Under the pieces are notes generated by a model, which was not told the DNA's origin, made no database searches, and saw only the letters and a list, made by a program, of their open reading frames with translations. From Thermoplasmatota archaeon (GTDB lineage: Archaea; Thermoplasmatota; Thermoplasmata; Thermoplasmatales; Thermoplasmataceae), in NCBI GenBank assembly GCA_023489435.1, contig JAMDCA010000037.1, forward strand, positions 23,587 through 87,586: a DNA stretch of 64,000 nt, in the 5' to 3' direction. Positions 3,701 to 59,589 of this stretch are shown here, in pieces. Every line of letters starts with the position of its first letter. The stretch's first letter is position 1. The position numbers were made by a program, and so were the translations under genes.

Positions 3701-6700
3701 CAACGTTGCCACCATTGCTGATATTGGCTGTCTGAACATTGGAAAATGTTCTGCCACCAGTTTTCAAAGACACCTTATAGGAAATAGGCGGTAGATTGGA
3801 TAATGAATACTCCCCCCCAATAATGGGTGCAGAGTAAGACAGGTTGTACTGGCTGCTGCTGTAAGTAATTGTTCCATTCTTTATCACAGATGTGACAGGT
3901 TTTGTCTGGGTGGAATTCTGTCCTGAAGATGATTGCTGATACTGGAATGCGACATTTCCCGATGCAGTGGTGTTCGAAAGCTGGAGATTCTGCTGAATAT
4001 AGTAGTCAGGAAGGCCAGTGGATTGGTTGTAGGATGTGGGTATCCTGTTAGCCTGATTTGTTGAAACATACACATTTTTTGTGCCAAGAGTGGTGTTTCC
4101 TATCAGGTACTGGTTATTTGTTGGTCCTGTTGAATAGAAAATGGTATCATTGCCAGGTAGACCGGTAACGTTGTAATATCCCTGGCTGTTTGTCTGCACA
4201 ACGCCATGTGGAATTCCATACTGGTCGAATAGAGTTACATGGACTCCGGGTACTGGGTTTCCATCCGGCATTGTGACTCTTCCATGTATGGTAGCACCAG
4301 AGTAGTAAGCAATTATGGGGTCTGATATGGAAAGAGAGGTGGAAACCGGTGGCGTAAGATCTACCGTACCCAGTTTATGCTGCTGGTAATAATAAGCCTG
4401 GGAAAGCGGCACTGTAGTCCAGGCAGACGGGTGAGCTGAGTAATCTTTGTAAGGATTGTATGGAACATTTTCGTAAACGACCATGAAGTTGCTCATATTC
4501 CAGGCAGGCTTCACGGAGTACTGGGTTGAGCCATAAGATATGCCGGGTATCCCATTAGACTGCCCGAGGACACTGGGTGGAAGCCCAACTGTGAACCGGT
4601 AAATTGAAGTGTTGTAGAATTGTGGTGTGAACTGTATATTGTAAGCATTTGGTATGTATCCCTGGGGGAGATTCTGAAGCGAGAATGTTCCATTGTTTGT
4701 GTTAGCATATATGTTGTAGTATTCCGTTGGGATAATGCCTCCACCTGGAGAGCTGTATGAGGGCGAATCTGTAAGAAAAGCAGGTGCGTAAAATATACCC
4801 GTGTTCTGAGCGGAGGTTGGCAGTAGAGAAGCAAGACTCGAATCTGTTGGAATCTGAAGATATTTTATGCTGTAACCTGTGTCTGCCATTATAGCTTGAT
4901 AAAGATTCACTAGGGTCGATACAGAATATTTGCTTGCCAGTTGGCCCTTGATATATGCAAAATACACATTAGTTCCGCTTACACCTTTAATGTACTGACC
5001 ATATATGGAGGGGCTAGCGAGTACTACACTGGTTAAGGACGTTGGATTTGAGGAGACTTTTGTTAGGTTGTTATATTCGCCATATCCCAGATACTGAATG
5101 AGTGTGTTCTTAACCGGACCATTGAAATCACCATTGGTGAAATTGGCCTGTATCAACCTGCTAACGAACAGACTGATGATTTGAGACTCATTCTGCGCGA
5201 GGAGTGTCTGTCCTGCCATTTCAACAGCCTGCTGGAAATCGTCTGCAACAGTCGGGTGCTGACCCTGATATCTTTCCTGGAAACCGTAGTCCCACCAGGA
5301 GAGGTATGAAGGTTTATCCTGTATTGGAAGGTTGGAATTCTGTGTGCTAAGCCACGCAAAGGATTTGCTCAATGGGGTAGAACCGTTCGAGATACCGCCG
5401 CTAAGCCCACCAACAAAGTTAGTGGTGTTATTTGTCTTAAGGAATCCGGGGAGCGAGTTTGCAATCTGGTTCTCTATCTGTATCTGGGCTGAACTGCCAG
5501 CTGGCACAGAGGCAGAAACCATTGAGGTTGCCGCTGGCAATACAATTAGTAATGTTACAAAGAGTACAAAAACTGCCTGAAGCCATTTGATATTACCCTT
5601 AACTGCTTTAAATGGAGAAGATGAAGCAGAGGGTTTCTTTTTCTTTACCTCATCAAGCCTGGAGATCCTTGAGAAGAGCAATAATACTCCTGCCGCAAGA
5701 ATGGCATATGCAGGTGCCGCCGTAATGTTGAAACGTGCAGCTTCAAAGCTCATGTATATGGATACTACTGAGAAAACCAATATGAGAAGTAACTGGTCAG
5801 TCTTCTCCTTGAGGAAAAGGTATGCTCCGTATCCGACTCCTACAATTCCAAGCAAAAATTGGGCAATTCCGAATCCTCCAATATAAGAGCCGAGTGCCGG
5901 TGCTGCTGCTTCAGCGATTGTAGTGTAAACTCTTGTCTTGATGAAATAACCGTCGCCGCTGATGAGTCTGTAGAAAAGGGCGGGACTAAGATGAGCCATG
6001 CCCTCAAGTCCAGCAACTACGGCAATTATGAGAACCGGTAAGACGAGTACCCATGGTCTTCTTCCAACCAGGCCTATAAGGGCACCAAAGATGAGCATAA
6101 CAAGCCCGATTTCAAGCTCAGCATTATACCATCCACTTAGCTCATTCACTCCGACGTAATAGTAAAGGCCCATTGCAAAGCCTAGGAAGATAAATAGAGT
6201 GGTGTAATAAGTAATGTATCCGGTGGGGCGCTTGAAAATAAGGTTCACAACGAGCTGAACTGCAACGTATATGAGTAGAATTGCCTCTATGTAAGCATAC
6301 CCCTGCCAGGAAAGCATAAGGCCACCTAGTGAGGCCCCAGCCAAAAGACCGTATATCGTTGCAATCCTATTTCTGTTAAAGAACTGGTAAATCTTAATAT
6401 GATACGTCTTGAAATCACTGAGGTTTTCAATGATCCTTGTCTTCTCTGAAAGCTTGATAGCCCTGAGGAAGAAGTAAATTGCAAAAAATGCGAATATAAG
6501 TTCAGGGGTGTGCATCCTTCCGCCTGACAGGATACCTGCAGAAAGATTGCTCGGCATGAGGGTGTAAAGCAGGGCGCCTACTCCAGCTGCATTCTTGCCA
6601 AAGATTTCCTTTGTGATAAGATAAACTGGAATTATGAGAAAAGCCCCAAAGACTGCGTCAAATTCCTCGAAAACATAGAAAGCGGCATTCTGGGTACCAT

Positions 6701-49767: not shown

Positions 49768-50238
49768 ATGGAAAAAGATACAGAAAAAGAAGAAAACGAA
49801 AATGAGGAAAGCAAGCAGAACATTTCTGTTAAAGGGGTCAGAAAAGATATTTACGGGAGGATTATGAAACTGACCAGGGACACGGGACAGACGCTTGGGG
49901 AAATTACAAATGAGGCATACAGGACATTTCTTTCCGGAGTAGAGGGGGCTAAACATCTTTCCAAGAATTTCATTGATGGAGCAACCAAAGGTTCTGTGAA
50001 ATACATTGAGAACATCAAGACGCTTACCATTAATGGAGAGGATCTAGCCGAGATATCTACAAAAATCGTGTTCAGAAACATAGACACATTGATATTTGAA
50101 GACATAAGCACAGAAGATGTGACGAAGCACGTGGAGAGCCTCTCAAACGTAAAAGTTATAGTAATACCCAAGTCGGTAAGCAAAGCATCAATTCTACTTA
50201 GGTCCACACTCATAGATGAGATAAGGATTTCTAAGTAA
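49768..50238 (+). CDS. Hypothetical protein with acidic N-terminus and a possible RHH-like DNA-binding segment
   Basis: NISVKGVRKDIYGRIMKLTRDTGQTLGEITNEAYRTFL has a strand-helix-helix pattern. No other recognisable motif. Confidence 0.4.
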   Translation: MEKDTEKEENENEESKQNISVKGVRKDIYGRIMKLTRDTGQTLGEITNEAYRTFLSGVEGAKHLSKNFIDGATKGSVKYIENIKTLTINGEDLAEISTKIVFRNIDTLIFEDISTEDVTKHVESLSNVKVIVIPKSVSKASILLRSTLIDEIRISK

Positions 50239-50252
50239 TACTGGAATGCATG

Positions 50253-50265
50253 AAAATAATATATT
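50253..50265 (+). promoter_or_regulatory. Candidate TATA box for tRNA-Val
   Basis: aaaataatatatt lies ~35 nt upstream of the mature tRNA 5' end. A similar aataatatat precedes the TPR gene. Confidence 0.3.
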
Positions 50266-50295
50266 CCCAGTGAATACGTGAACCTGCTCACAACA

Positions 50296-50368
50296 GGGCT
50301 CGTAGTCTAGTGGTTATGATACCGCCCTTACAAGGCGGTGGTCACCGGTTCAAATCCGGTCGGGCCCA
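50296..50368 (+). tRNA. tRNA-Val (anticodon UAC), 73 nt, no encoded CCA
   Basis: Hand-folded cloverleaf. Acceptor GGGCTCG/CGGGCCC. Anticodon stem CCGCC/GGCGG with loop CTTACAA. T arm ACCGG-TTCAAAT-CCGGT. Discriminator A. Confidence 0.9.
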
Positions 50369-50390
50369 CTTATATCTATAAACAAGTCCT
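50356..50390 (+). repeat. att-like direct repeat copy 1 (tRNA-Val 3' end plus 22 nt downstream)
   Basis: ccggtcgggcccacttatatctataaacaagtcct. Compare copy 2 at 52057-52090. Confidence 0.65.
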
Positions 50391-50518
50391 GCTCTAAAAG
50401 ATAGGTAATTAAGTGGATAAATAAGGTAAGGTTTCTGAAAGGAATGTATGCAACACCCGCCTGCCAGACTATTGTTCCAAGTTAATTTTTATGTTTCTGA
50501 TTTGAAAGTCTTTCCCAG

Positions 50519-51175
50519 TTACTCACCCAGTGAAAAATAATGACGAAAAGAATAGATTAGGGGTTTCCATTTTGCTGGATCTATGTGCCTCTCATCCAAG
50601 ACGATATCCTTCCTCGCGTGTAACTTTACTACAGAAACCTCCACTATTGCGGCGTCCGCCCCACCTTCTGACAATACACATATGTTCTTCACGACCGCTT
50701 CCATTTGGAGAGGACATTCTTTGACCAATGGTGGACGAACTACCTCTGAGTCCACCGCAGTCAAATTAGCAGCCCTGAACTTGTCGCTTTCGTATCTGTA
50801 CCTGCCAGCCTTAAAAGGAGGCACAGGGTTCTTACCCGTTAATGGAGCAAGCCCTTCAACGCTTTCCCACATGTCTTTGTCGGGAAAGTTGAGCGTCAGC
50901 TCTCTGGTCGCCTCCAAATTCTCATAGGTCTTTCCACTCGTAGCGAGCCCTAGTACGACATGATAACCTAGGGCCCAGGCAGACGACATAGGTGATAGAT
51001 TCGCATTACCGTCTTTGTCAAGAGATGATATGAGAACAACTGGTGTGCCGAAATAAAGAATACTCGGCTTAACGTTCATATGGTCCTCATTCTCCAGTTT
51101 TGAGGTGTTTTCACTCAAGTTATGATACCCAGAATTTCCATATTCTTCTTTGTACTCGTTCGAATCAATACACAT
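50519..51175 (-). CDS. Flavin reductase-like (FMN-binding split-barrel) domain protein
   Basis: PSILYFGTPVVLISSLDKDGNANLSPMSSAWALGYHVVLGL resembles PF01613-type flavin reductases. The true start may be ATG 51079 (MNVKPS...). Confidence 0.6.
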   Translation of the reverse strand: MCIDSNEYKEEYGNSGYHNLSENTSKLENEDHMNVKPSILYFGTPVVLISSLDKDGNANLSPMSSAWALGYHVVLGLATSGKTYENLEATRELTLNFPDKDMWESVEGLAPLTGKNPVPPFKAGRYRYESDKFRAANLTAVDSEVVRPPLVKECPLQMEAVVKNICVLSEGGADAAIVEVSVVKLHARKDIVLDERHIDPAKWKPLIYSFRHYFSLGE

Positions 51176-51267
51176 AGTATCACAAGGATCAGTTTTGACT
51201 AAATCTTATCTATACATATGAGAAAAGACATATATCAAAAACTCTTTGAGCTAAAGGGTAATAAGCA

Positions 51268-51966
51268 TTGAGTTTGAGAAAAGGCAGTATAGTCGATGCG
51301 ATTACTCATCCGCTAAGGAAGACCATAGTTGAGATTTTAGCTGATGCGCCCAGAACAGTTAGCGAGATTGTAACACTTACCGGCAAGAACCAGCCCACTG
51401 TATCTTCGCATCTGGCGATTCTCACGAGTGCTAACGTTGTCGATTCACACCCCTTAGGACGGGAAAGGATATACCGGTTGATTCCGGAGGGATTTGAGGA
51501 ACTTGTCGACTGGTTAGATGGAGTCATTCATGCAAGAGATGAAAAACGCCTTTCTCCGTTCAACAAGAAAACCCACTTGATTACTGAATTGCATTATGCA
51601 AGAACGTGCTACGATCATTTAGCCGGCATTGTAGGAGTCAGCATGCTTGATGAGCTACTGAACAGGAAATGGATCCTACAGAAGGGGGACGGGAGCAAGA
51701 TATTAACACTAACACCAGAGGGAGAAGCGGGACTTTCTCACCTCGGGATAGAAATACCTATTCGAAGGAACAGCAAGAGAATCTTTGCTTACTCGTGTAT
51801 GGACTGGACTGTTAAGCGGTTCCATCTTGGAGGAGCCTTAGGTTTCTCTTTACTGAAAGGACTGGAGAATTTGGGTTACCTGGAAAGAGTAGCTGGTTCA
51901 AGAAAAGTGATCATAAATCGAGAAGTAAAGAACTTTTTCATTGGGGAACCTGTCCTATCCTATTGA
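51268..51966 (+). CDS. ArsR/SmtB-family wHTH regulator with a ~130-aa C-terminal extension
   Basis: LRKTIVEILADAPRTVSEIVTLTGKNQPTVSSHLAILTSANVV... The C-terminal ARTCYDHLAGIVGV motif recalls a bacterial ArsR subfamily. TTG start. Confidence 0.7.
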   Translation: MSLRKGSIVDAITHPLRKTIVEILADAPRTVSEIVTLTGKNQPTVSSHLAILTSANVVDSHPLGRERIYRLIPEGFEELVDWLDGVIHARDEKRLSPFNKKTHLITELHYARTCYDHLAGIVGVSMLDELLNRKWILQKGDGSKILTLTPEGEAGLSHLGIEIPIRRNSKRIFAYSCMDWTVKRFHLGGALGFSLLKGLENLGYLERVAGSRKVIINREVKNFFIGEPVLSY

Positions 51967-52056
51967 AATAACGCTTAAACGGAGACAGGAGATTGAGGAA
52001 TGATGAGAAAGGGCTTTTGCGACGAACCTTCAACGTTATTTATTATGGAAAAAGAA

Positions 52057-52090
52057 CCGGTCGGGACCACTTATACCTACATTAAGTCCT
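52057..52090 (+). repeat. att-like direct repeat copy 2
   Basis: ccggtcgggaccacttatacctacattaagtcct. About 30 identical positions with one indel versus the 35-nt copy 1, same orientation. Confidence 0.65.
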
Positions 52091-52402
52091 TCCCCCTGCC
52101 AAAAAGGGGATAGTATTAGACTTGGCTTTGGTCCCCCAAGGTGTTGACCACAAATCCAGGTATTCTCTTCATACTGCGCTGCCCCTTAAATAAGGAAACA
52201 ATATTATCTCTAATTAGGGGCCCTAAGCATGACCATTCTCTGACAGATTAGGGTATTGTTGCTGTACTCTCGGAATTTGCCTAAGTCCGTTTGTCTCTCG
52301 AATGTCAAACAGGTTCACGCGGGCAGAGAGCTGATACTTTAAAACTTGACAAAATACACTTAAGCAAACGTGAATGATCCATAGTTATCCAAGTGTGTCA
52401 GT

Positions 52403-52624
52403 TCACAGTAGCTTGATAAATTCCTCTACACTTAGTTCACATTGTCGAATTATTGCTCTCATTGTACCTTTTGGCAGCTGATCATGATTAGGGATTGAAA
52501 CTCTCTTTCCATCTGATTCACGCTTCAGTATCATGTGGCTTCCAACCTGGCTCTTGAATATGAATCCAACCTTGAAAAGAGCTTTCATAGTATCTTTCCC
52601 TGAGACAGAAGGAAGTTTAGGCAT
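52403..52624 (-). CDS. hicA: HicA-family mRNA interferase toxin
   Basis: MPKLPSVSGKDTMKALFKVGFIFKSQVGSHMILKRE...IPNHDQLPKGTMRAIIRQ matches the HicA pattern (PKLP..sgke..kaL.k.GF...q.GSH). Confidence 0.85.
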   Translation of the reverse strand: MPKLPSVSGKDTMKALFKVGFIFKSQVGSHMILKRESDGKRVSIPNHDQLPKGTMRAIIRQCELSVEEFIKLL

Positions 52625-52832
52625 TCAACTCTACGTTTCCAATGATGTCTATGTCCGGTGGTATGGGCTCTCCATCGGATTTCATGTCTTCTATGAAACC
52701 CCTGATGGCCTCCTTTATGTTTGACATGGCCTCCTCAACTGTACGACCATCGGATATGCATCCAGGCAAAGCTGGAACAGTAACGACATAAATTCCATCT
52801 TCATCCTTCTCCATAACCACTGTAAATCTCAT
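52617..52832 (-). CDS. hicB: HicB-family antitoxin (UPF0150)
   Basis: MRFTVVMEKDEDGIYVVTVPALPGCISDGRTVEEAMSNIKEAIRGFIE is typical HicB. ATG 52832 verified. 8-nt overlap with hicA. The track's longer ORF (to 53132) is rejected. Confidence 0.8.
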   Translation of the reverse strand: MRFTVVMEKDEDGIYVVTVPALPGCISDGRTVEEAMSNIKEAIRGFIEDMKSDGEPIPPDIDIIGNVELNA

Positions 52833-52906
52833 AATTTTATGATAGAGTATTGAGTATAAATCTTTGCGCTTCATTAAAATCCCGATTGAATTCGTATTCC
52901 CTAGAA

Positions 52907-52931
52907 GTTCAATGAATCCGGTCGGGCCCGC
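52907..52931 (+). repeat. att-like repeat copy 3 (tRNA-Val T-arm/acceptor 3' fragment)
   Basis: gttcaatgaatccggtcgggcccgc versus tRNA gttcaaatccggtcgggcccac. Same orientation, 3-nt insertion. Confidence 0.6.
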
Positions 52932-53536
52932 TTTCCCCAACTCGCTGTCTGCCTTGGTGGCAAGCGGGAATTTCACTTTATGACCTGAATAGAGGCCATC
53001 CACAACCAAGGTTTTCTCCAAGTCAATTACGGAGAAATCTGGCATTTTCATTTTCTGACACACCGAAGGGCTTTGAACCGAAAATATAAGCGAAAGAAAA
53101 AGGACCGATAGTATCATTCCATGTGAGACCACTGCAACTGATTTTAGTCCACTCTCCCTGGTTATCCCACTTATACACTGTGTGATCCTTTGCTTTGCCT
53201 TGGAATATCCTCAAAGTGGTTTGTTCTAATTCCTGAGAGGTAATCCAGTACATACTGCGTGAAGGTTTACTGTTCTATAAAATCAAAGTGGCGCTCTACC
53301 CCTTTCAGGCATTGGCGTACTATCAAGGATACACTGCATATTTCCCCTAGTATTGCGGCAGTGGCCTTTGCTTTACGCAATGGGCTGTGGAAAATGCAGT
53401 CAACGCCCCGGAGCCCGATCTCCTTGGACATTTTCAGCAGAGAATTTTGTGCTGCAGGCTTTAGCTTCCATTCTGTTGAAGAAATAGCAGGATTAATCTC
53501 AGTTTCTGCGTGCCTGATGATGTACAATTTTGCCAT
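52932..53536 (-). pseudogene. Histidine phosphatase (phosphoglycerate-mutase-like) family gene, disrupted by frameshift(s)
   Basis: N-terminal part MAKLYIIRHAETE...HSPLRKAKATAAI (ATG 53536) stops at TAA 53267-53269. The C-terminal signature KSVAVVSHGMILSVLFLSL is in a different frame, the one the track merged with hicB. Confidence 0.6.
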
Positions 53537-53663
53537 AGTTTGAGGAATCACAAGGCCATAACATATTATGATTATCTCTTCAGGTTGCCCACGGAACGCC
53601 CGGGGTTTCCTGAAAGATAAAACGTTCCCTAAATATAACAGAATTGCGTTTGACTTCCTGAAG

Positions 53664-54320
53664 ATGTACAAGGACAGAAAAGATGCAGGCCAAAAGCTTT
53701 CACTGCTTCTCCAAAGATACCAGGGTGAAAACGTAATTGTATATGGCTTGACCAGGGGAGGAGTTCCTGTTGCCTATGAGGTTGCAAAATACCTGAATGC
53801 ACCTCTGGAAGCATTCATTGTGAAAAAGCTGGGTGCACCTTACCAGGAGGAGCTTGCCCTTGGCGCTGTTACGGAAGGAAAAGAACCCGGGGTTTACTAT
53901 AACAAGGAAATACTCTCACACATGCATCTGCTTGAAAGTGATCTGAAATCATCTATTCAGAGGAAAATGGCCGACATTGAGGAATTACAGAAAAAGATCA
54001 GGCCTGATGCCAAATTGCATTTGTTTCCAAAGGCCATTGCCATTATCGTGGATGACGGGATTGCAACTGGCTCCACCATGAAGGCTGCACTCAAATTCTT
54101 CAAGAAACTGGGCCAGTTCAGGATAACTGTTGCAGTTCCTGTGGGACAGCGTTCCGTACTTGAAGAGTTGGGAGAACTTGCTGATGAAGTGGTTTGTGCG
54201 GAACCCGTATTGTATTTGGAGGCCGTTGGAGAATTCTATAAAGATTTCACACAGGTGGAAAGCGAGACTGTTCTCGCCCTCCTGGAACAATCCAGAAAAC
54301 CACTTGCAAAGAAGAATTGA
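53664..54320 (+). CDS. Predicted phosphoribosyltransferase (type I PRTase fold)
   Basis: MYKDRKDAGQKLSLLLQRY, VYGLTRGGVPVA and PRPP loop IIVDDGIATGSTM. Start set at ATG 53664. Confidence 0.7.
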   Translation: MYKDRKDAGQKLSLLLQRYQGENVIVYGLTRGGVPVAYEVAKYLNAPLEAFIVKKLGAPYQEELALGAVTEGKEPGVYYNKEILSHMHLLESDLKSSIQRKMADIEELQKKIRPDAKLHLFPKAIAIIVDDGIATGSTMKAALKFFKKLGQFRITVAVPVGQRSVLEELGELADEVVCAEPVLYLEAVGEFYKDFTQVESETVLALLEQSRKPLAKKN

Positions 54321-54323
54321 ATT

Positions 54324-56993
54324 TCATGGGCTTGTGCGGGAGCGATTGCTTGAATAGTATTGCCAGACCTTGATCCCCTCCATCCAGAAGGTCGCTGCCG
54401 CAGTGCAGGCAATGATGAGGAACCAGTCGGATGCAGTAAGTTCAGCGGTGTGCAAAATCAACTGGAGGGATGGGAATATTGTGATAATGAACAGAGTGAT
54501 GAACACCAGTATTCCCCAGATGAGCACAACCTTGTTAGAAAAGAATCCCTTAATTGATACTGGCTCTTTTTCAGTCCTCAGGTTTTGTGCAAGAAACAGT
54601 TGGGCAACAACCCAGGCCGCGAAGGCGGCTGTCCGTGACCTTTCAAGATTCCCGGAAGTGTGCACCAGAAAGAAGTATATTCCAAAAACTGCACCTGCGA
54701 TAGCCAGCGAAGTAATGATGACATAAGCCAGAGTGCTTGCATTGATGAAGGATGACTTGCCATTTTTTATCCTGGCTGACATAATGCCAGCTTCTTCCCT
54801 CTCATAGAGGAAACCTCCCAGAGCAGCCACATCCAGAAGAAGCTCCAGTATTATGATCTGGATAGGCGAAAAGGGGAATGGTATTGAAACTATAATGGGG
54901 GCAAGGAGAATCATTACAAGGGAGAGTTTTATGCTTATCTCATACTTGATGCTCTTTTTAAGAGTATACAGGATTTCACGGCCTTCATGAACCGCTTCCA
55001 CAATGGTGGAAAAATTATCATCGAGAAGAATCATGTCCGATGCCTCTCTTGCAACCTCAGTCCCCCTGATCCCCATGGAAATCCCAATTTCAGCACGTTT
55101 CAATGCGGGCGAATCATTTACTCCGTCTCCCGTTACAGCTACTGTTTCCCCTTTTTCCTGCAGGAGCTTCACCAGCCTGAATTTATCATCCGATGTGATC
55201 CTTGCAAACACCGATACGTGGTCCAGTTGATTTTTGAGTGTTGAATCATCCATTCCAGCAAGTTCATTCCCGGTCAGGACCACCCCTGCGGAATTGATTC
55301 CCACTCTGTCGGCTATGGCCCTGGCAGTCCTGGGGTGGTCCCCGGTCAACATTATCACCTTGATTCCGGCATTCTGGCATGCAAGTATTGATTCCTTGAC
55401 TTTGTCCCTTGGAGGATCAATAAAACTGATTAGACCTAGGTACTGTAGGCTGTCCTCAACTTCTCTCCTTTCTGTGCTGCTTTTCCCCAACTTTTTGTAA
55501 GCAACGCCGATGACCCGTTCTCCCCTGGAAGAGATGGCCTCAACTTCCTCCAGTACAAGGGCAGCCAGATCTTTCTTCATGCCATTACCGGGAATGTTGG
55601 AATTGCCGGTGGTTTCGATTCTGTCCAAGATTGCTTCAGGGGACCCGCTTGTGAAAATAAAGATCTCCCGTTCCAGATTCTCGTATATGTAAGATGACAG
55701 CTTCAGGTTATTGTCGAATCCAAATTCCTCCAGAAGCCTGTATTTTTTACTAAGGTTCATGTTTTCAGGGTTCTTGGATGTAAAATAATTGTAAACAGCA
55801 GTTTCCATTGGATCCCTGCGGGAATTTTCCGCATCCTGTGACAGGTTCAAGGTTCCAGTGGCAAGGATCGCCGCTTCGTCCATGAAACCTGCCTGAAGCC
55901 CTGGACCAAACGTGGAAGGATCAAAATAAACGTTTGACACAGACATCCTGTTTTCCGTGATCGTTCCTGTTTTGTCTGTTGCGATTACAGACACACTGCC
56001 TAATGTTTCAGCTGCTCTGAGGTTCTTTACCACTGCCTTATGCCTTGAAAGGGAAAATGCACCAATGGCAAGAGTTATTGAAATAATGACGGGCAACTCC
56101 TCAGGAACTGTTGCGAAAGCCATGGAGAGCCCTGTGAGGAGCATTTCACTTAAGGCCTGGCCTTCAAGGTATCCCATTAGAGGAACAATTACGCTGAAAA
56201 TTACAGCCATTGATGCCAGTACAGTGATAAGCCTTGAAAGTGAGTCCTGAAGCGGAGTCTTTTTCGATCCCTCCTGTTCTGTCAGGCTAGCTATCCTGCC
56301 AAGTTCTGTTTCGTTCCCGGTTACAGTTGCAATGAATTTTCCTGATCCTTGCACCACCATCGTTCCGGAGAACACGATATTGTCAAGTTCGGCAATAAGG
56401 GCTGATTTGGGTATGGAATCAGCATCTTTGAGAACATAAAATGACTCCCCTGTGAGAGAGGATTCATCAACTTTCAATGTGTGGGCCTCTACAAGCCTTC
56501 CATCTGCTGGCACCAAATCGCCTGAATAGAGAAAAACCACGTCCCCCGGTACAATGGATTCTGTTTTTATTTCCCTGGTGGAACCTTCCCTCAGTACCCT
56601 GGCAAGAGGCATGCGCAAATCCTTCAGTGCATTAATTGAAACCCTTGCCCTGTTGACGTTATAGGTTTCAATCCCAACAACCAGCAGGACAACAACCACG
56701 ATTGTTATGGAATCCCGGGGCTCCCCCAAGATAGAATACAATATGGCAATGATCACCAGAAGCAAAATCATGGGCTCCCTGAGTTCCTTGATAAATACCC
56801 ATAGGAACCCGATGTTTTTTTCAGGCTCAATTGTATTTTTACCATAAGATTTGAGCCTGGCCTCTGCCTCCGTGCTATCGAGGCCACGGGAAATATCAGT
56901 GTTCACGCTTAAGGCAACTTCTTCTAAGCTCCTCTGGGAAACCTCCACAGCTTTCAAAGGCGCCCTCATTTGACTGCCAATATAGTGGTGCAT
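54324..56993 (-). CDS. P-type cation-transporting ATPase (P2-like, Ca2+/cation pump family)
   Basis: DKTGTITEN phosphorylation site, TGDHPRTA, VTGDGVNDSPALKRAEIG. N-terminal cation-ATPase domain (GLDSTEAEARLKSYGKN). ATG 56969 is an alternative start. Confidence 0.88.
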   Translation of the reverse strand: MHHYIGSQMRAPLKAVEVSQRSLEEVALSVNTDISRGLDSTEAEARLKSYGKNTIEPEKNIGFLWVFIKELREPMILLLVIIAILYSILGEPRDSITIVVVVLLVVGIETYNVNRARVSINALKDLRMPLARVLREGSTREIKTESIVPGDVVFLYSGDLVPADGRLVEAHTLKVDESSLTGESFYVLKDADSIPKSALIAELDNIVFSGTMVVQGSGKFIATVTGNETELGRIASLTEQEGSKKTPLQDSLSRLITVLASMAVIFSVIVPLMGYLEGQALSEMLLTGLSMAFATVPEELPVIISITLAIGAFSLSRHKAVVKNLRAAETLGSVSVIATDKTGTITENRMSVSNVYFDPSTFGPGLQAGFMDEAAILATGTLNLSQDAENSRRDPMETAVYNYFTSKNPENMNLSKKYRLLEEFGFDNNLKLSSYIYENLEREIFIFTSGSPEAILDRIETTGNSNIPGNGMKKDLAALVLEEVEAISSRGERVIGVAYKKLGKSSTERREVEDSLQYLGLISFIDPPRDKVKESILACQNAGIKVIMLTGDHPRTARAIADRVGINSAGVVLTGNELAGMDDSTLKNQLDHVSVFARITSDDKFRLVKLLQEKGETVAVTGDGVNDSPALKRAEIGISMGIRGTEVAREASDMILLDDNFSTIVEAVHEGREILYTLKKSIKYEISIKLSLVMILLAPIIVSIPFPFSPIQIIILELLLDVAALGGFLYEREEAGIMSARIKNGKSSFINASTLAYVIITSLAIAGAVFGIYFFLVHTSGNLERSRTAAFAAWVVAQLFLAQNLRTEKEPVSIKGFFSNKVVLIWGILVFITLFIITIFPSLQLILHTAELTASDWFLIIACTAAATFWMEGIKVWQYYSSNRSRTSP

Positions 56994-57115
56994 AATGTAG
57001 TGAATCCCTAAAAAAAAATGGGGATTGGCATCATCTTGACGTGATCTATTCCATACCTATTCTGAAGTGCATTAGTTCACAAAATCTTATTAATCCAGCT
57101 AAAGTTTAGCATTAA

Positions 57116-57628
57116 ATGGGGGATAACAGGCCGACCTGGGATCAGTATTTCATGAGAATGGCTTTTCTTGCAGCCTCCCGTGCTAACTGCACAAGGAGGA
57201 AAGTCGGTGCAGTGATCGTGAAGGACAAAAATATCCTTGCGACCGGTTATAATGGTCCACCATCAGGCACAGTCCACTGCGACGTTGTCGGCTGCATCAG
57301 GGACGACCTCAATGTACCCTCCGGCGAGAGGCATGAGCTTTGCAGGGGATTACATGCCGAGCAGAATGCCATTATCCAGGCTGCCGTGCATGGAGTAAGC
57401 ATCAGCGGGGCAACTATTTACATCACCACACACCCTTGCATCGTTTGCTCCAAGATGATCATGAATTCCCAGATCAAGGAGATAATCTACGCTCAGGGTT
57501 ACCCTGATGAGCTCGCGGAACTAATGCTGCTGGAAAGCAACATCAAGAAGAGGAAATTTGAACTGCCGGAAGAGGAAACAAGGGCTATGCTTGGAGAATT
57601 CTATGCGAAAATGCCCGGTAACGACTGA
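57116..57628 (+). CDS. dCMP deaminase (ComEB/CDA zinc-dependent deaminase family)
   Basis: HAEQNAI and PCIVCSKMI zinc-binding motifs. 170 aa. Confidence 0.85.
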
Positions 57629-57663
57629 CGAACCTTATATATAAATGGACAAGATCGGTTCAC

Positions 57664-58326
57664 GTGTTAGATTTTGCATTAGCCACGATGGTGTCAAATG
57701 AAATCATCTCCATTATAACAACATTAGGCTACCCTGGAATTTTTTTCTTAATGCTTCTTGAAGGACTTTTGCTTCCCATACCATCTGAAGTAGTCATGGC
57801 ATTTGGAGGCTACCTGGCCTACAGCGGAACTCTGCCTTCGGAAATAGGGATACCAGCTTTCATCCTGCTGCTTCTTGCAGGCAGTGTTGGCAACATGGTA
57901 GGTGCATACCTTGCATACATGCTGGGAGACTACGGGGGCATACCCCTTATCCTCAGATACGGGAAATACGTGATGCTTGACAAAGGTTCCATAGACAGGA
58001 CCCAGCTCTGGTTTGAAAAATACGGAACTCCTTCAGTGTTCCTTACCAGGCTTGTCCCTATCTTCAGGACATTCATTTCGATACCTGCAGGCATTGCAAA
58101 AATGAACAGGGTTCATTTCCTGGCCCTGACATTTGTGGGTGCCATGATCTGGGACTCGATCCTGATTTACCTGGGTTACATTCTTGGGCCCCACTGGGAG
58201 CAGATCATCAGCACCTTCAACCAGTTCACTGACCTCGCGGTTGCAGCCCTTGTCATTATTGTGGTAGCATGGGTATACACAAAAATGAAGAGCAAAAAAG
58301 CTACAAAGAGTAAGAGTGTGGAATAA
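57664..58326 (+). CDS. DedA/SNARE-associated family membrane protein
   Basis: YPGIFFLMLLEGLLLPIPSEVVMAFGGYL and LVPIFRTFISIPAGIAKM are DedA signatures. GTG start. Confidence 0.8.
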   Translation: MLDFALATMVSNEIISIITTLGYPGIFFLMLLEGLLLPIPSEVVMAFGGYLAYSGTLPSEIGIPAFILLLLAGSVGNMVGAYLAYMLGDYGGIPLILRYGKYVMLDKGSIDRTQLWFEKYGTPSVFLTRLVPIFRTFISIPAGIAKMNRVHFLALTFVGAMIWDSILIYLGYILGPHWEQIISTFNQFTDLAVAALVIIVVAWVYTKMKSKKATKSKSVE

Positions 58327-58433
58327 TAGAGATAAGGGACATCCACAAGTCCCATTTGCAATTACAGTTGCATTTGCTTGACTCTTAATTGTTGAATAAC
58401 TTTGCAAATGAGTTTTGAAGACTTATGCCCGTA

Positions 58434-58622
58434 CTAGAGCCGAGTCATAGCGGTGTTGTAAAACTCATCCCGACCACATGATGGGCACTCTATTTTCTGA
58501 TTTCCATTATCGAAATATGCGTTTATGACAAGCCTGATGTAATCATAAACCCATTCATAACCGCACTTTTTGCAGATTGGGTGCGTTGTGCCTCTAATCA
58601 AAATAAAGACTTCGCGAGTCAA
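58434..58622 (-). CDS. Small Zn-ribbon protein (62 aa), hypothetical
   Basis: CKKCG...CPSCG pairs. The only start is TTG. Confidence 0.35.
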   Translation of the reverse strand: MTREVFILIRGTTHPICKKCGYEWVYDYIRLVINAYFDNGNQKIECPSCGRDEFYNTAMTRL

Positions 58623-58661
58623 GTGATGGTTTTGAATAAAAAATTTATTTTTTTAAAAAAA

Positions 58662-58856
58662 TTAGTGTTTGTTCGTGGACCATGGGAGAGCCAGTGATAG
58701 AAAGAACACAATGAATCCCACGGTTGCAAACACAACCACATCATTCTCTGATATGTTCAAGAAATGGTAGAGTAGCCCACCAATTTCTATTATGAACAGG
58801 CCAAGGAAGAATAGTGGATATCTTACGCTGCTTAGATTTCTTGCCATATTTTTCAC
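58662..58856 (-). CDS. Small two-TM membrane protein (64 aa) directly downstream of the SDH anchor gene
   Basis: Two hydrophobic helices. 1-nt gap to the upstream gene. Followed by an AT-rich tract with T runs at 58636-58661. Confidence 0.4.
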   Translation of the reverse strand: MKNMARNLSSVRYPLFFLGLFIIEIGGLLYHFLNISENDVVVFATVGFIVFFLSLALPWSTNKH

Positions 58857-58857
58857 C

Positions 58858-59589
58858 TCAGTGCAGAAGCACTATGTTCGGAAACACTCCAGCAACTGTA
58901 GCCCTTATGAATAGGTCAACCAGGAAGAACATTGTAAGGCTGAGCCAGGCAAATGTCTCATGGTGCGTATTTAGTATTGTCTGTCCATTGAATATCTTGT
59001 TTTTCGTGTTGTGCTTGCAGCTGAAACAGTCAGTGTTGCCTCCAACCAGATGCCTGATGGCATGGCAGGAGAACGTATAGAGGGTCACCAATGCCGTGTT
59101 GACAATGAGCAACAGTCCACCAAGGGTAAGCGTGAAACCTGGCTGATAAACCATTGAAAGATATAGGTCATAGTAGAAGAATGGCAGTATTGCAACTGCG
59201 AAGTACATGAAGTACCTGTGCGCATTCTCTATCCTGAACAGCCTTGTTTCTCCAGTGTATTCTCGCCCCTTGAATTCTGCCCTGAACCCGATTTCGCAGG
59301 TTCTCGGGTGATTGAACACATGCCTGTGGTAATCTTTCCTGTACGCATAGCAGGTAAACCTGAATAGCGCCACAAGGGGAACCACTGCAAGCGTTGGGGA
59401 GTAGAAAGGATCTGTTAGGCCTGTGGAACTGCTGTAATAAACAGGATATGTTGCCATGAGAAACACTCCAACGGCTATGAGGATGATAAATGACCAAAGC
59501 CTCCAGTTAGGTTCGAGGAACTCCTTTGGTATAAACCGGGTCATAGACCTGTTTGTTTTCTGCCTTGCCTGATTCTGATTGCTTATCAT
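58858..59589 (-). CDS. Succinate dehydrogenase membrane anchor, atypical single 5-TM subunit with a Cys/His-rich loop
   Basis: Abuts the sdhB stop. Five hydrophobic helices. CHAIRHLVGGNTDCFSCKH at aa 175-193 (nt 59011-59067, verified), plus CYAYRKDYHRHVFNH. Confidence 0.6.
   Translation of the reverse strand: MISNQNQARQKTNRSMTRFIPKEFLEPNWRLWSFIILIAVGVFLMATYPVYYSSSTGLTDPFYSPTLAVVPLVALFRFTCYAYRKDYHRHVFNHPRTCEIGFRAEFKGREYTGETRLFRIENAHRYFMYFAVAILPFFYYDLYLSMVYQPGFTLTLGGLLLIVNTALVTLYTFSCHAIRHLVGGNTDCFSCKHNTKNKIFNGQTILNTHHETFAWLSLTMFFLVDLFIRATVAGVFPNIVLLH

Follow-up and report, generated by a model that had tools for sequence, protein, structure and literature searches.

Downstream of the tRNA-Val(TAC) gene at 50296-50369 (forward strand) in the 64-kb stretch of DNA analysed here, termed the window, fragments of the 3' end of the same tRNA recur in the same orientation, which raises the question of how the DNA lying between them arrived and whether it is still mobile. 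The gene was called by ARAGORN and was the sole match in an Rfam search of 50200-53700 (tRNA, 70 bits), and in about 20 related loci the same tRNA-Val adjoins Rieske/cytochrome b genes. The comparisons described below make it probable that 50370-52931 comprises two small integrative islets in tandem, neither with an integrase, which are designated as islets A and B and are seated in the 3' end of this tRNA gene.

A repeat search disclosed one same-strand repeat family at 50356-50378, 52057-52079 (91%) and 52918-52940 (74%). The attachment core, which would be attL of islet A, is formed by the tRNA-Val 3' end at about 50350-50369 (TCAAATCCGGTCGGGCCCAC). Copy 1 reads CCGGTCGGGCCCAC TTATATCTATAAACAAGTCCT, while copy 2, located at the islet A/B junction (52057-52090, forward strand), reads CCGGTCGGGACCAC TTATACCTACATT-AAGTCCT; aligned by eye, the two are identical at 29-30 of 35 positions with one indel, in agreement with the roughly 30 identities and one indel that a sequence-only reading of this DNA had reported. 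The core of copy 2 is degenerate, having one substitution and missing the T-loop part, and is followed by left arm 2 (TTATACCTACATTAAGTCCT); this copy looks too degenerate for recombination. The third fragment at 52907-52931 (forward strand), likewise reported by that reading, is assigned as the attR that closes islet B and, with it, the array on the right. It reads GTTCAATGAATCCGGTCGGGCCCGC and harbors an exact 15-nt core at 52915-52929 plus GTTCAA beyond a 2-nt insertion, so that at least 15 nt of exact core are retained in copies 1 and 3. The core of copy 3 is also the point where the homology of the window with the loci L005 and L070 ends, and homology with the conspecific L117 starts exactly at 52915. 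A fourth, decayed copy was sought between the phosphatase pseudogene and the phosphoribosyltransferase (PRT) gene of the right flank, and nothing above chance was observed there. The inserted DNA is thus bounded by same-orientation direct repeats of the tRNA 3' end, and the tRNA gene itself is intact.

It might be argued that the repeats resemble each other by chance or stem from partial duplication of a tRNA gene, the gene order being ancestral, since copies 2 and 3 are short (best ungapped match, 15-19 nt) and the islets show no compositional anomaly: their GC content of 0.385-0.505 is not distinct from that of the flanks, and the comparison of the two, which the sequence-only reading had suggested, gave no useful contrast. 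Against this, the scan of the window by which the significance of the repeats was to be judged returned three matches to the 17-mer AATCCGGTCGGGCCCAC at up to 3 mismatches, all at the tRNA-Val 3'-end copies, where 0.10 were expected in 64 kb, and three matches were reached in 0 of 100 shuffles; copies 2 and 3 were each detected by blastn-short against the window with E = 0.002. Related genomes, moreover, have empty sites, and the same junction architecture exists in independent genomes and beside an integrase gene. On these sequence comparisons, an origin by chance or ancestry appears exceedingly improbable and effectively refuted.

The empty sites are found in the nearest relatives. In the closest related genome (L001; 87% nucleotide identity in the flanks), tRNA-Val is followed by 148 nt and then by the PRT gene, where the window has 3284 nt (3.28 kb); homology to the window stops at 50379 and resumes at 53664. 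The site in L004 is likewise empty, with tRNA-Val followed by the PRT gene. Other occupants are present at tRNA-Val in L005, L070, L010 and L024, the last of which carries a second integrase-less tandem array with three copies, and the conspecific or near-conspecific assemblies L108, L113 and L111 hold different occupants after the same tRNA. The tRNA-Val 3' end therefore behaves as an integration hotspot, as had been proposed, being vacant in some relatives and variously filled in others. The form predicted for the empty site, in which tRNA-Val(TAC) would be directly followed by the phosphatase gene, was not encountered, and the nearest relatives have the PRT gene there and no phosphatase at all.

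This discrepancy bears on the right flank. The histidine phosphatase sequence after copy 3 (52942-53536, reverse strand), identified by a Pfam profile and by alignment with its variant in L115, had been referred to simply as a gene and turned out to be the N-terminal fragment of a decaying, frameshifted pseudogene, intact only for profile positions 1-78 of 194, while full-length relatives comprise 193-217 aa. In the alignment with L115, the window sequence shows a TAA in frame, the deletion of 1 nt and the change of the TAG stop to TTG, and the L115 variant has a different frameshift; the native stop codon lies 8 nt from copy 3. A word-indexed search for homologs returned the query itself only, and an exhaustive search added 18 distant matches and L115. 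Because it is a frameshifted pseudogene and has no counterpart in the nearest relatives examined, the phosphatase is not a proven native flank. The first far-side gene common to relatives is the PRT gene (53661-54320, forward strand; Pfam PF00156), the true start of which is probably Met32 of the open reading frame (ORF) beginning at 53568, judging from tblastn matches in L001 and L006 that begin at residues 32-33.

Islet A (50370-52056, 1.69 kb) is constructed of a divergent gene pair, namely a flavin reductase-like gene of 218 aa (50519-51175, reverse strand; PF01613 Flavin_Reduct, 1.5e-17) and an ArsR/SmtB-type HTH regulator of 232 aa with a C-terminal extension (51268-51966, forward strand; PF01022 HTH_5, 2.8e-12). 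Homologs of the regulator with 65-78% identity are always accompanied by the flavin reductase partner. The islet is absent from L001-L080, and its cassette is 70-74% identical at the nucleotide level to the gene pair at four unrelated loci (L095, L096, L098 and L099) in assemblies that are probably from Thermoplasmata, the organism having been checked for L098 and L099 only. These are ordinary-looking chromosomal loci, and an att-bounded copy of islet A was found nowhere else among the loci examined. In L095, the pair is situated 700 nt from a tRNA-Val(CAC), where no distal repeat was found, and the homology of L098 to the islet A region reaches only the first 6 nt of copy 2.

Islet B (52071-52917, about 0.85 kb) consists of a conserved left end, an ORF-free stretch and a minus-strand hicB-hicA pair. 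The HicA toxin gene (52403-52624, 73 aa, reverse strand; PF07927, 2.4e-16) overlaps the HicB antitoxin gene (52617-52832, 71 aa, reverse strand; PF15919, 1.4e-14) by 8 nt (52617-52624), and the hicB start lies 85 nt from copy 3. HicB is taken to begin with MRFTVV..., the PF15919 match corresponding to residues 103-159 of a long ORF and HicB being called as 71 aa in L105. The cargo of the two islets, given by the sequence-only reading as a flavin reductase/ArsR pair and HicAB, is confirmed by these Pfam matches. The same reading had interpreted the roughly 310 nt devoid of ORFs as decay: the absence of ORFs is upheld (none of at least 40 aa in 52091-52402), but decay is not the whole explanation, for the first ~120 nt form the conserved end of an element and have a homolog immediately 3' of tRNA-Val in L111.

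Two further HicAB islets, one each in the Thermoplasmata genomes L005 and L070, are also att-bounded at tRNA-Val and about 79% identical to islet B at the nucleotide level; both display the succession tRNA-Val, left arm, hicA-hicB and distal tRNA 3' fragment; HicA shares 81-82% amino acid identity with L005 and L070, and HicB shares 86-92% with L070 and L005. The 25 nt past the distal copy in L005 (ATAGATAAGGCCGAAAAACGTGCCG) directly follow tRNA-Val in L003, which represents the empty site corresponding to the L005 islet. Across hosts, the HicBA DNA is 78-83% identical and the host Rieske and cytochrome b genes are 63-72% identical, and this excess of similarity over the host core genes points to horizontal movement. 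The sequence comparisons support the view that the HicAB islet is a recurrent, horizontally moving unit. The usual role of HicAB-type toxin-antitoxin pairs is the stabilisation of mobile DNA, and by analogy the pair probably stabilises its islet here.

The element family to which the islets probably belong can be recognised from the sequence that follows the core. Left arm 1 (TTATATCTATAAACAAGTCCT; 50370-50390, forward strand), identified as element-derived by comparison with related loci, directly follows the tRNA; the motif stands directly 3' of tRNA-Val in L005, L070, L024, L025, L081 and L108, also adjoins a tRNA-like core on the integrase contig L082, and is absent at the empty sites L001, L004 and L003. 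The arm consensus of the family is TTAYAnCYAYAA..AAGTCCT. The stretch of about 21 nt behind each of copies 1 and 2 corresponds to the arm in the attP-like site of L082, left arm 2 being a close match by eye with a register shift mid-way. The earlier claim that the similarity of copies 1 and 2 extends past the tRNA is thereby substantiated, and the sequence they have in common there is element-derived, the same arm adjoining a tRNA-Val 3' fragment on L082. That locus has no tRNA and encodes a 437-aa protein 56 nt from a site composed of the arm, TTTAAATCCGGTCGGGCCCA and TTTATACCTATAATTAAGTCCT, demonstrating that an attP-like core and arm beside an integrase gene exist on a related element. No terminal overlap is present in this linear 3.2-kb metagenome contig, and its site, instead of being a genuine attP, could be a junction inside some other tandem array; the right arms adjoining copies 2 and 3 have no demonstrable homology to that of L082. 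Scanning with the left-arm pattern gave 0 matches in IMG/VR and retrieved L081 and L082 only from the metagenomes.

The assignment of the L082 protein family to the tyrosine recombinases is based on a PHROGs match (phrog_1 integrase, 5e-8), on a profile search against PDB structures that matched XerA 5HXY (1.2e-4) with the box I Arg and box II YVLRAYF aligned, and on homolog names, several of the 2492 homologs being named 'site-specific integrase' and some having PF00589 matches; Pfam gave nothing significant for the integrases of L010, L082 and L036. In these three loci the conserved integrase protein starts downstream of the att site. The 5.6-kb element L010, which has a rolling-circle Rep, is located between tRNA-Val and a distal copy that abuts an L082-family integrase. 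The 10.3-kb element L100 occupies tRNA-Pro and has an exact 20-nt attR, beside which stands int-hicB-hicA in the same polarity as islet B; its HicAB is only 52-60% identical to that of the window. The integrase-carrying relatives that the sequence-only reading had recommended looking for were thus obtained in L082 and L010, with matching att architecture.

That neither islet retains an integrase, as had been stated, is borne out by the absence of an integrase domain from the nine ORFs of the region scanned with Pfam and by a tblastn search of the whole 64-kb window with the L010 and L082 integrases, which yielded no match (best E = 0.4). With the same two queries, a split SSV-type integrase was also considered and rejected, no integrase-like translation being present beside copies 1-3; a 'GPTGF' peptide across copy 3 is merely the translated tRNA core. 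The islets are accordingly regarded as derivatives or non-autonomous relatives of the lambda-type class rather than full members of it, as they have no integrase of their own.

The array is best accounted for by a family of Thermoplasmata elements with a lambda-type (unsplit) tyrosine integrase, whose attP would pair a duplicate of the tRNA-Val T-loop and acceptor 3' end with the arm behind it. Recombination of this attP with tRNA-Val would regenerate the tRNA, place the arm directly after it and leave a partial tRNA copy at the far end. A further round of integration at the site, or uptake of a composite that had accreted beforehand, would produce the order tRNA, islet A, att2, islet B and att3, after which the integrase genes would have been lost and the cargo left behind; the flavin reductase/ArsR cargo may have been picked up from a related archaeal chromosome. 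The repeats, the arms, the empty site, the recurring HicAB islet with att copies of its own and the integrase-bearing relatives are direct observations; the order of these events and the manner of integrase loss are inferred, as would be any remaining ability of the islets to be moved by an integrase supplied in trans. Of the two successive integrations originally proposed, the att-bounded islets stand, while their succession in this genome is only one possible history. Several observations sit less easily with this reading. Neither the window nor the same sample series yielded an integrase specific for tRNA-Val, the relatives P0124 and P0125 being tRNA-Pro-specific, and no circular form or excision junction was seen; the lack of another att-bounded islet A, the flank-like GC content and the difference between the DNA right of copy 3 and the flank of the empty-site relatives point the same way.

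It is possible, though on balance doubtful, that the islets, at least the HicAB islet, are live non-autonomous mini integrative elements that a full-size relative, acting in trans through its integrase, would still excise, transfer and re-integrate into tRNA-Val, the archaeal counterpart of cis-mobilizable elements (CIMEs). The three HicAB islets, all of them integrase-less, have the hicB-to-att junction and about 80% nucleotide identity in common although their hosts vary widely in relatedness, the attL/attR cores are kept in copies 1 and 3, occupants turn over rapidly among conspecific assemblies, and in Thermococcales an integrase-defective element has been shown to be excised in trans by the integrase of a relative (PMC5495485). 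However, no excision product or free form and no co-resident tRNA-Val integrase came to light, copy 2 is degenerate, the three HicAB islets diverge in their left parts, consistent with each having decayed separately once it had been transferred as part of a larger element, and an IS insertion together with the neighbouring pseudogene suggests a decaying region. Arrival of the array en bloc as an accreted composite, or its formation by att-att recombination between tRNA-Val loci with chromosomal rearrangement instead of circle insertion, is unlikely, even though composite transfer is known for CIME-ICE tandems (PMC5704250) and integrase-driven inversion between att sites is known in Thermococcales (PMC5495485). 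In its favour, L117 has the right flank of the window (98.2% identity from 52915 on) fused through the att core with an entire tRNA-Val(GAC), upstream of which lie unrelated genes, and in L081 the left-arm motif is carried by a tRNA-Val(GAC). L117 is, however, a single MAG contig, for which no homolog of the reciprocal junction was found among the loci compared; in L111 the tRNA is followed at once by a left end resembling that of islet B, consistent with stepwise insertion at the site nearest the tRNA, and L005 and L070 are simple single insertions. The L117 junction nevertheless hints at recombination between the tRNA-Val TAC and GAC loci. As a tentative proposal, rather unlikely as it stands, the HicAB islet of ~0.9-1.7 kb might be a minimal non-autonomous element made of an att site, an arm and an addiction module, which would spread among distantly related Thermoplasmata via a borrowed tRNA-Val integrase, and the same system may recombine the TAC and GAC loci, reshuffling chromosomes within species.

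The tandem array of integrase-less islets clearly exemplifies a type of genome hotspot that was known before: documented precedents exist for tandem integration, for the loss of integrases and for integrase-less islands flanked by att sites, and the basic phenomenon is well described in bacteria and has been reported in archaea. The case provides a clean, comparatively documented instance of tRNA-site accretion in uncultured acidophilic Thermoplasmata, and supplies an att core, an arm motif and a candidate integrase family with close tRNA-Val- and tRNA-Pro-specific members, which would help to mark out mobile DNA in such MAGs and to study integrase target switching, and might also serve as genetic tools. 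Testable leads toward trans-mobilisation and integrase-driven rearrangement are provided by the recurrent HicAB-only islet and the L117 junction.

Among known systems, streptococcal ICEs and IMEs are described as giving CIMEs and as accreting in tandem at att sites in tRNA genes or elsewhere (Pavlovic 2004; Bellanger 2011; reviewed in PMC5704250). The islets of the window resemble CIMEs in having no integration or transfer genes while keeping attL and attR, in standing in tandem with a common internal att site in a tRNA 3' end, and in a layout explained by integration, decay and further integration. They differ in their archaeal host, in an integrase family that is Thermoplasmata/archaeal and gives no Pfam match (L082, L010, L036), in the absence of conjugation genes and in their very small size (0.85 and 1.7 kb). 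For archaeal tRNA-integrated elements with lambda-type (class II, pNOB8-like) integrases, tandem integration and integrase loss are reported in the review PMC8371274 and the Thaumarchaeota survey PMC6563490, the consulted passages of which make no mention of a recurrent HicAB-only islet. With this class, the window shares the tRNA 3' end as attB, flanking direct repeats, tandem re-use, integrase-less elements and, in the related L010, L082 and L100, an integrase gene beside but outside the att site; in contrast, the present elements target only the tRNA-Val of Thermoplasmata, their close relatives being found on tRNA-Pro, and their arm motif was defined in this analysis. SSV-type (class I, 'suicidal') elements of Sulfolobales and Thermococcales have attP inside the int gene, which is split upon integration (PMC7253208, PMC5495485). 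They are similarly archaeal, tRNA-targeting, stably integrated and excisable in trans by a related integrase, and their att-att inversions by integrase offer a precedent for the L117 arrangement, whereas the window islets have no flanking int(N)/int(C) and the conserved integrase of their relatives begins after the att site. In common with known HicAB modules, the HicA (PF07927) and HicB (PF15919) genes of islet B overlap, and HicAB also stands beside the integrase in the full-size L100. The gene order is distinct, the antitoxin gene coming first in the window and the toxin gene coming first in E. coli hicAB.

The tRNA-Val(TAC) gene (50296-50369, plus strand; called by ARAGORN and Rfam) is followed downstream by two further occurrences of its 3' end on the same strand, and a repeat search of the window placed 50356-50378, 52057-52079 and 52918-52940 in a single family. 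When up to three mismatches were allowed, the 17-mer AATCCGGTCGGGCCCAC matched only these three sites in 64 kb against 0.10 expected, a number reached in none of 100 shuffles, and copies 2 and 3 each gave E = 0.002 in blastn-short, which bore out the recurring same-orientation tRNA-Val 3' ends claimed by the sequence-only reading. The similarity of copies 1 and 2 past the tRNA also held, as about 21 nt are common to copy 1 (TTATATCTATAAACAAGTCCT) and copy 2 (TTATACCTACATT-AAGTCCT). Copy 3 retains 15 exact nucleotides (52915-52929) together with a displaced GTTCAA; the core is kept in copies 1 and 3 and is degenerate in copy 2. The delimited islets carry genes for a flavin reductase and an ArsR-type regulator (islet A, 50370-52056) and for HicA and HicB (islet B, 52071-52917), the very cargo named beforehand. 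The ORF-free stretch of about 310 nt described in islet B was likewise recovered, with no ORF of at least 40 aa in 52091-52402, and no integrase was found in the window, in agreement with the islets having been called integrase-less.

The source is a Thermoplasmata archaeon whose nearest public genomes are acid-environment MAGs; contig JAMCUM010000031 of GCA_023381375.1 is 99.97% identical to the window across 10.5 kb. Scanning a genome collection with the adjacent Rieske protein as seed yielded 80 loci, about 20 of which keep the order cytochrome b, Rieske protein, 156-aa ORF and tRNA-Val(TAC). In the closest of them, L001, with flanks 87% identical to the window at the nucleotide level, homology breaks off at 50379 and restarts at 53664, the start of a phosphoribosyltransferase (PRT) gene, leaving an interval of 148 nt versus 3284 nt in the window. 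The site is also empty in L004. None of the 80 loci was found to hold a homolog of the flavin reductase, of the ArsR protein or of the phosphatase encoded to the right of copy 3. Site content varies inside the window's own species: in two loci with 98.9% identical upstream sequence (L108 and L113), the tRNA and the arm, the element-derived sequence directly after it (TTATACCTATAAGCAAGTCC), are followed by an ORF for a membrane protein and by a transposase of IS5-like type. In L111 (upstream 96.8% identical), the tRNA gives way at once to about 120 nt with homology to islet B's left end, and a small ArsR gene comes next.

Islet A looks like a captured chromosomal gene pair, because the divergent flavin reductase/ArsR pair is a conserved two-gene unit at unrelated loci of other assemblies (L095, L096, L098 and L099; 70-74% nucleotide identity; organism checked for L098 and L099 only). 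An att-bounded islet A was not found outside the window, and its putative integrated status rests on the empty site, the junction at copy 2 (52057-52090) and the arm following the tRNA.

Comparison of sequences shows that the HicAB islet recurs as a unit and carries att copies of its own. In L005, tRNA-Val is followed by CCGGTCGGGCCCATTTACAGCCA, about 1.1 kb with hicA and hicB, and CCGATCGGGCCCATTTACAGCCA; the next 25 nt (ATAGATAAGGCCGAAAAACGTGCCG) directly follow tRNA-Val in L003, which makes L003 the empty site for this islet. In L070, tRNA-Val and the same arm as in L005 are followed by about 1.65 kb with hicA and hicB and by AAATCCGGTTGGGCCCAT. A three-way alignment with the window revealed homology spanning hicA, hicB and the hicB-to-att spacer and stopping at the distal core. 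Since the three share 78.5-82.6% identity in HicBA DNA, more than the identity of the host Rieske and cytochrome b genes to the window (72% for L005; 63% for L070, 50-56% at the amino acid level), we infer that the islet spread horizontally, every time into tRNA-Val. By analogy with established knowledge of type II toxin-antitoxin systems, HicAB is probably an addiction module aiding islet persistence. At the left end of islet B (52090-52115), a short inverted repeat, CCCCCTGCCAAAAAGGGG, also kept in L111, may be a terminator or protein-binding site. In sample ERZ27237460, an IS with a DDE transposase lies directly after the hicA stop (L090:2-720, L093:3078-3676; about window 52400), an insertion polymorphism inside islet B.

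The arm motif TTAYAnCYAYAA..AAGTCCT occurs past window copies 1 and 2 and in L005, L070, L024, L025, L108 and L081, where it comes after tRNA-Val(GAC), and is missing from empty sites. A metagenome pattern scan recovered L082, a 3.2-kb contig without a tRNA in which the motif comes after a bare tRNA-Val 3' fragment (TTTAAATCCGGTCGGGCCCA) and a gene for a 437-aa protein starts 56 nt off on the opposite side. This protein, one from L036 and the one that adjoins the distal att in L010, a 5.6-kb element with a rolling-circle Rep, form one family, assigned to the tyrosine recombinases by a PHROGs integrase match (5e-8), a profile match to Thermoplasma XerA (5HXY; 1.2e-4) aligning the box I Arg and YVLRAYF box II, and 2492 homologs, several named 'site-specific integrase' (Thermoplasmataceae, Cuniculiplasma divulgatum and others) and some with PF00589 matches. 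The family is of lambda type and not of the split SSV type, because the conserved protein starts past the att site. A 10.3-kb element in tRNA-Pro(GGG), which has an exact 20-nt attR, carries a 74%-identical integrase, P0123, at its distal end; hicB-hicA directly follow this integrase, matching islet B in order and polarity apart from the integrase missing from the latter. A further tandem array at tRNA-Val that lacks an integrase occurs in L024; it has three copies and a cargo of permeases, IS fragments and MarR-MFS.

Past the attR of the tRNA-Pro element (L100:8531-9951) lie a VapBC (PIN) pair, a more divergent HicAB-like remnant and a GGTCCCATA fragment, and toxin-antitoxin-only islets may accumulate at this hotspot too. 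Integrases 69-74% identical have differing cores, in tRNA-Val or tRNA-Pro (L082:2690-2775; L100:9930-9990; L132:1-60), and their elements have in common a homologous int-proximal arm (…TATA.GGTTTAGGAACT.TAA…). A similar word, AGTYCCTAA, flanks the L082 core on both sides and takes the form AAGTCCT in window arms 1 and 2; these sequences are candidates for arm-type binding sites.

The best-supported reading is integration into the tRNA-Val 3' end, site re-use and integrase loss: an integrase of the L082/L010 type would have catalyzed site-specific integration, re-use of the site would have produced the tandem array, and the integrase genes would have been lost afterwards. Both tandem integration at a single site and integrase loss following integration are described for archaeal elements (PMC8371274, PMC6563490), and att-flanked, integrase-less islands accreted in tandem correspond to the bacterial CIME concept (PMC5704250). 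The finding is real and well supported, its type already known; what the array contributes is a well-delimited case from Thermoplasmata, complete with att motifs and a candidate integrase. The islets may be inert remnants or may still be movable in trans: the core retained in copies 1 and 3 and the excision of TKV4 by Int-pTN3 (PMC5495485), an archaeal precedent, favour mobility, whereas the degenerate copy 2 speaks against it. A HicAB mini-element mobilised in trans and att-mediated exchange between tRNA-Val loci are further readings that survive and may apply.

On the right flank, what had been taken for a phosphatase gene is a histidine phosphatase pseudogene with an interrupted frame (52942-53536, minus strand), copy 3 being 8 nt from its native stop position. 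The frame covers only profile positions 1-78 of 194; full-length relatives have 193-217 aa. Aligned with the population variant L115, the window shows a TAA within the gene, a deletion of 1 nt and the loss of its native TAG stop; L115 has another frameshift, an early 1-nt deletion, and these differing lesions indicate that decay continues within the population. The supposed empty site, tRNA-Val directly followed by the phosphatase gene, was not encountered: empty-site relatives lack that gene, and L001 homology resumes at PRT. The segment would therefore be a flank specific to this lineage or else a third, older islet that has lost its distal att. In L117 (GCA_027367255.1), a MAG of the same species whose PRT protein is identical, the att core connects a complete tRNA-Val(GAC) (4290-4364) with the phosphatase-pseudogene/PRT/ATPase block (window 52915-59322, 98.2% identical from 52915 on), with unrelated genes for an aldehyde dehydrogenase and an fn3 protein upstream. 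This junction could reflect recombination between two tRNA-Val loci, and for Thermococcales there is a published record of att-att inversions driven by integrases (PMC5495485); it could also be an assembly artefact in a chimeric contig.

Several minor observations concern the same neighbourhood. Extra DNA occurs upstream of the tRNA too, in a 93%-related genome, where the interval from the 156-aa ORF to tRNA-Val holds frameshifted pieces of transposase that look ISL3-like by eye (L002:8073-9313). Near tRNA-Val, the products of L003:4679-8940 are a 459-aa protein and one of 883 aa that resembles family B DNA polymerases (DTET and YCDTDS motifs by eye), and L015:5127-5492 holds a fragment homologous to the C-terminus of the L003 protein; another mobile element type may use this neighbourhood. 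The conserved motif GGGGATATAGATAAGGCCGAAAAACGTGCCG, found in several lineages 10-45 nt past tRNA-Val or the distal att copy (L003, L005, L017, L030 and L073), may be a promoter or small RNA. As listed, the PRT ORF begins with 31 extra N-terminal residues (53568-53660), whose coding stretch overlaps the phosphatase promoter region; as matches from L001 and L006 start at residues 32-33, translation probably begins with the ATG at 53661.
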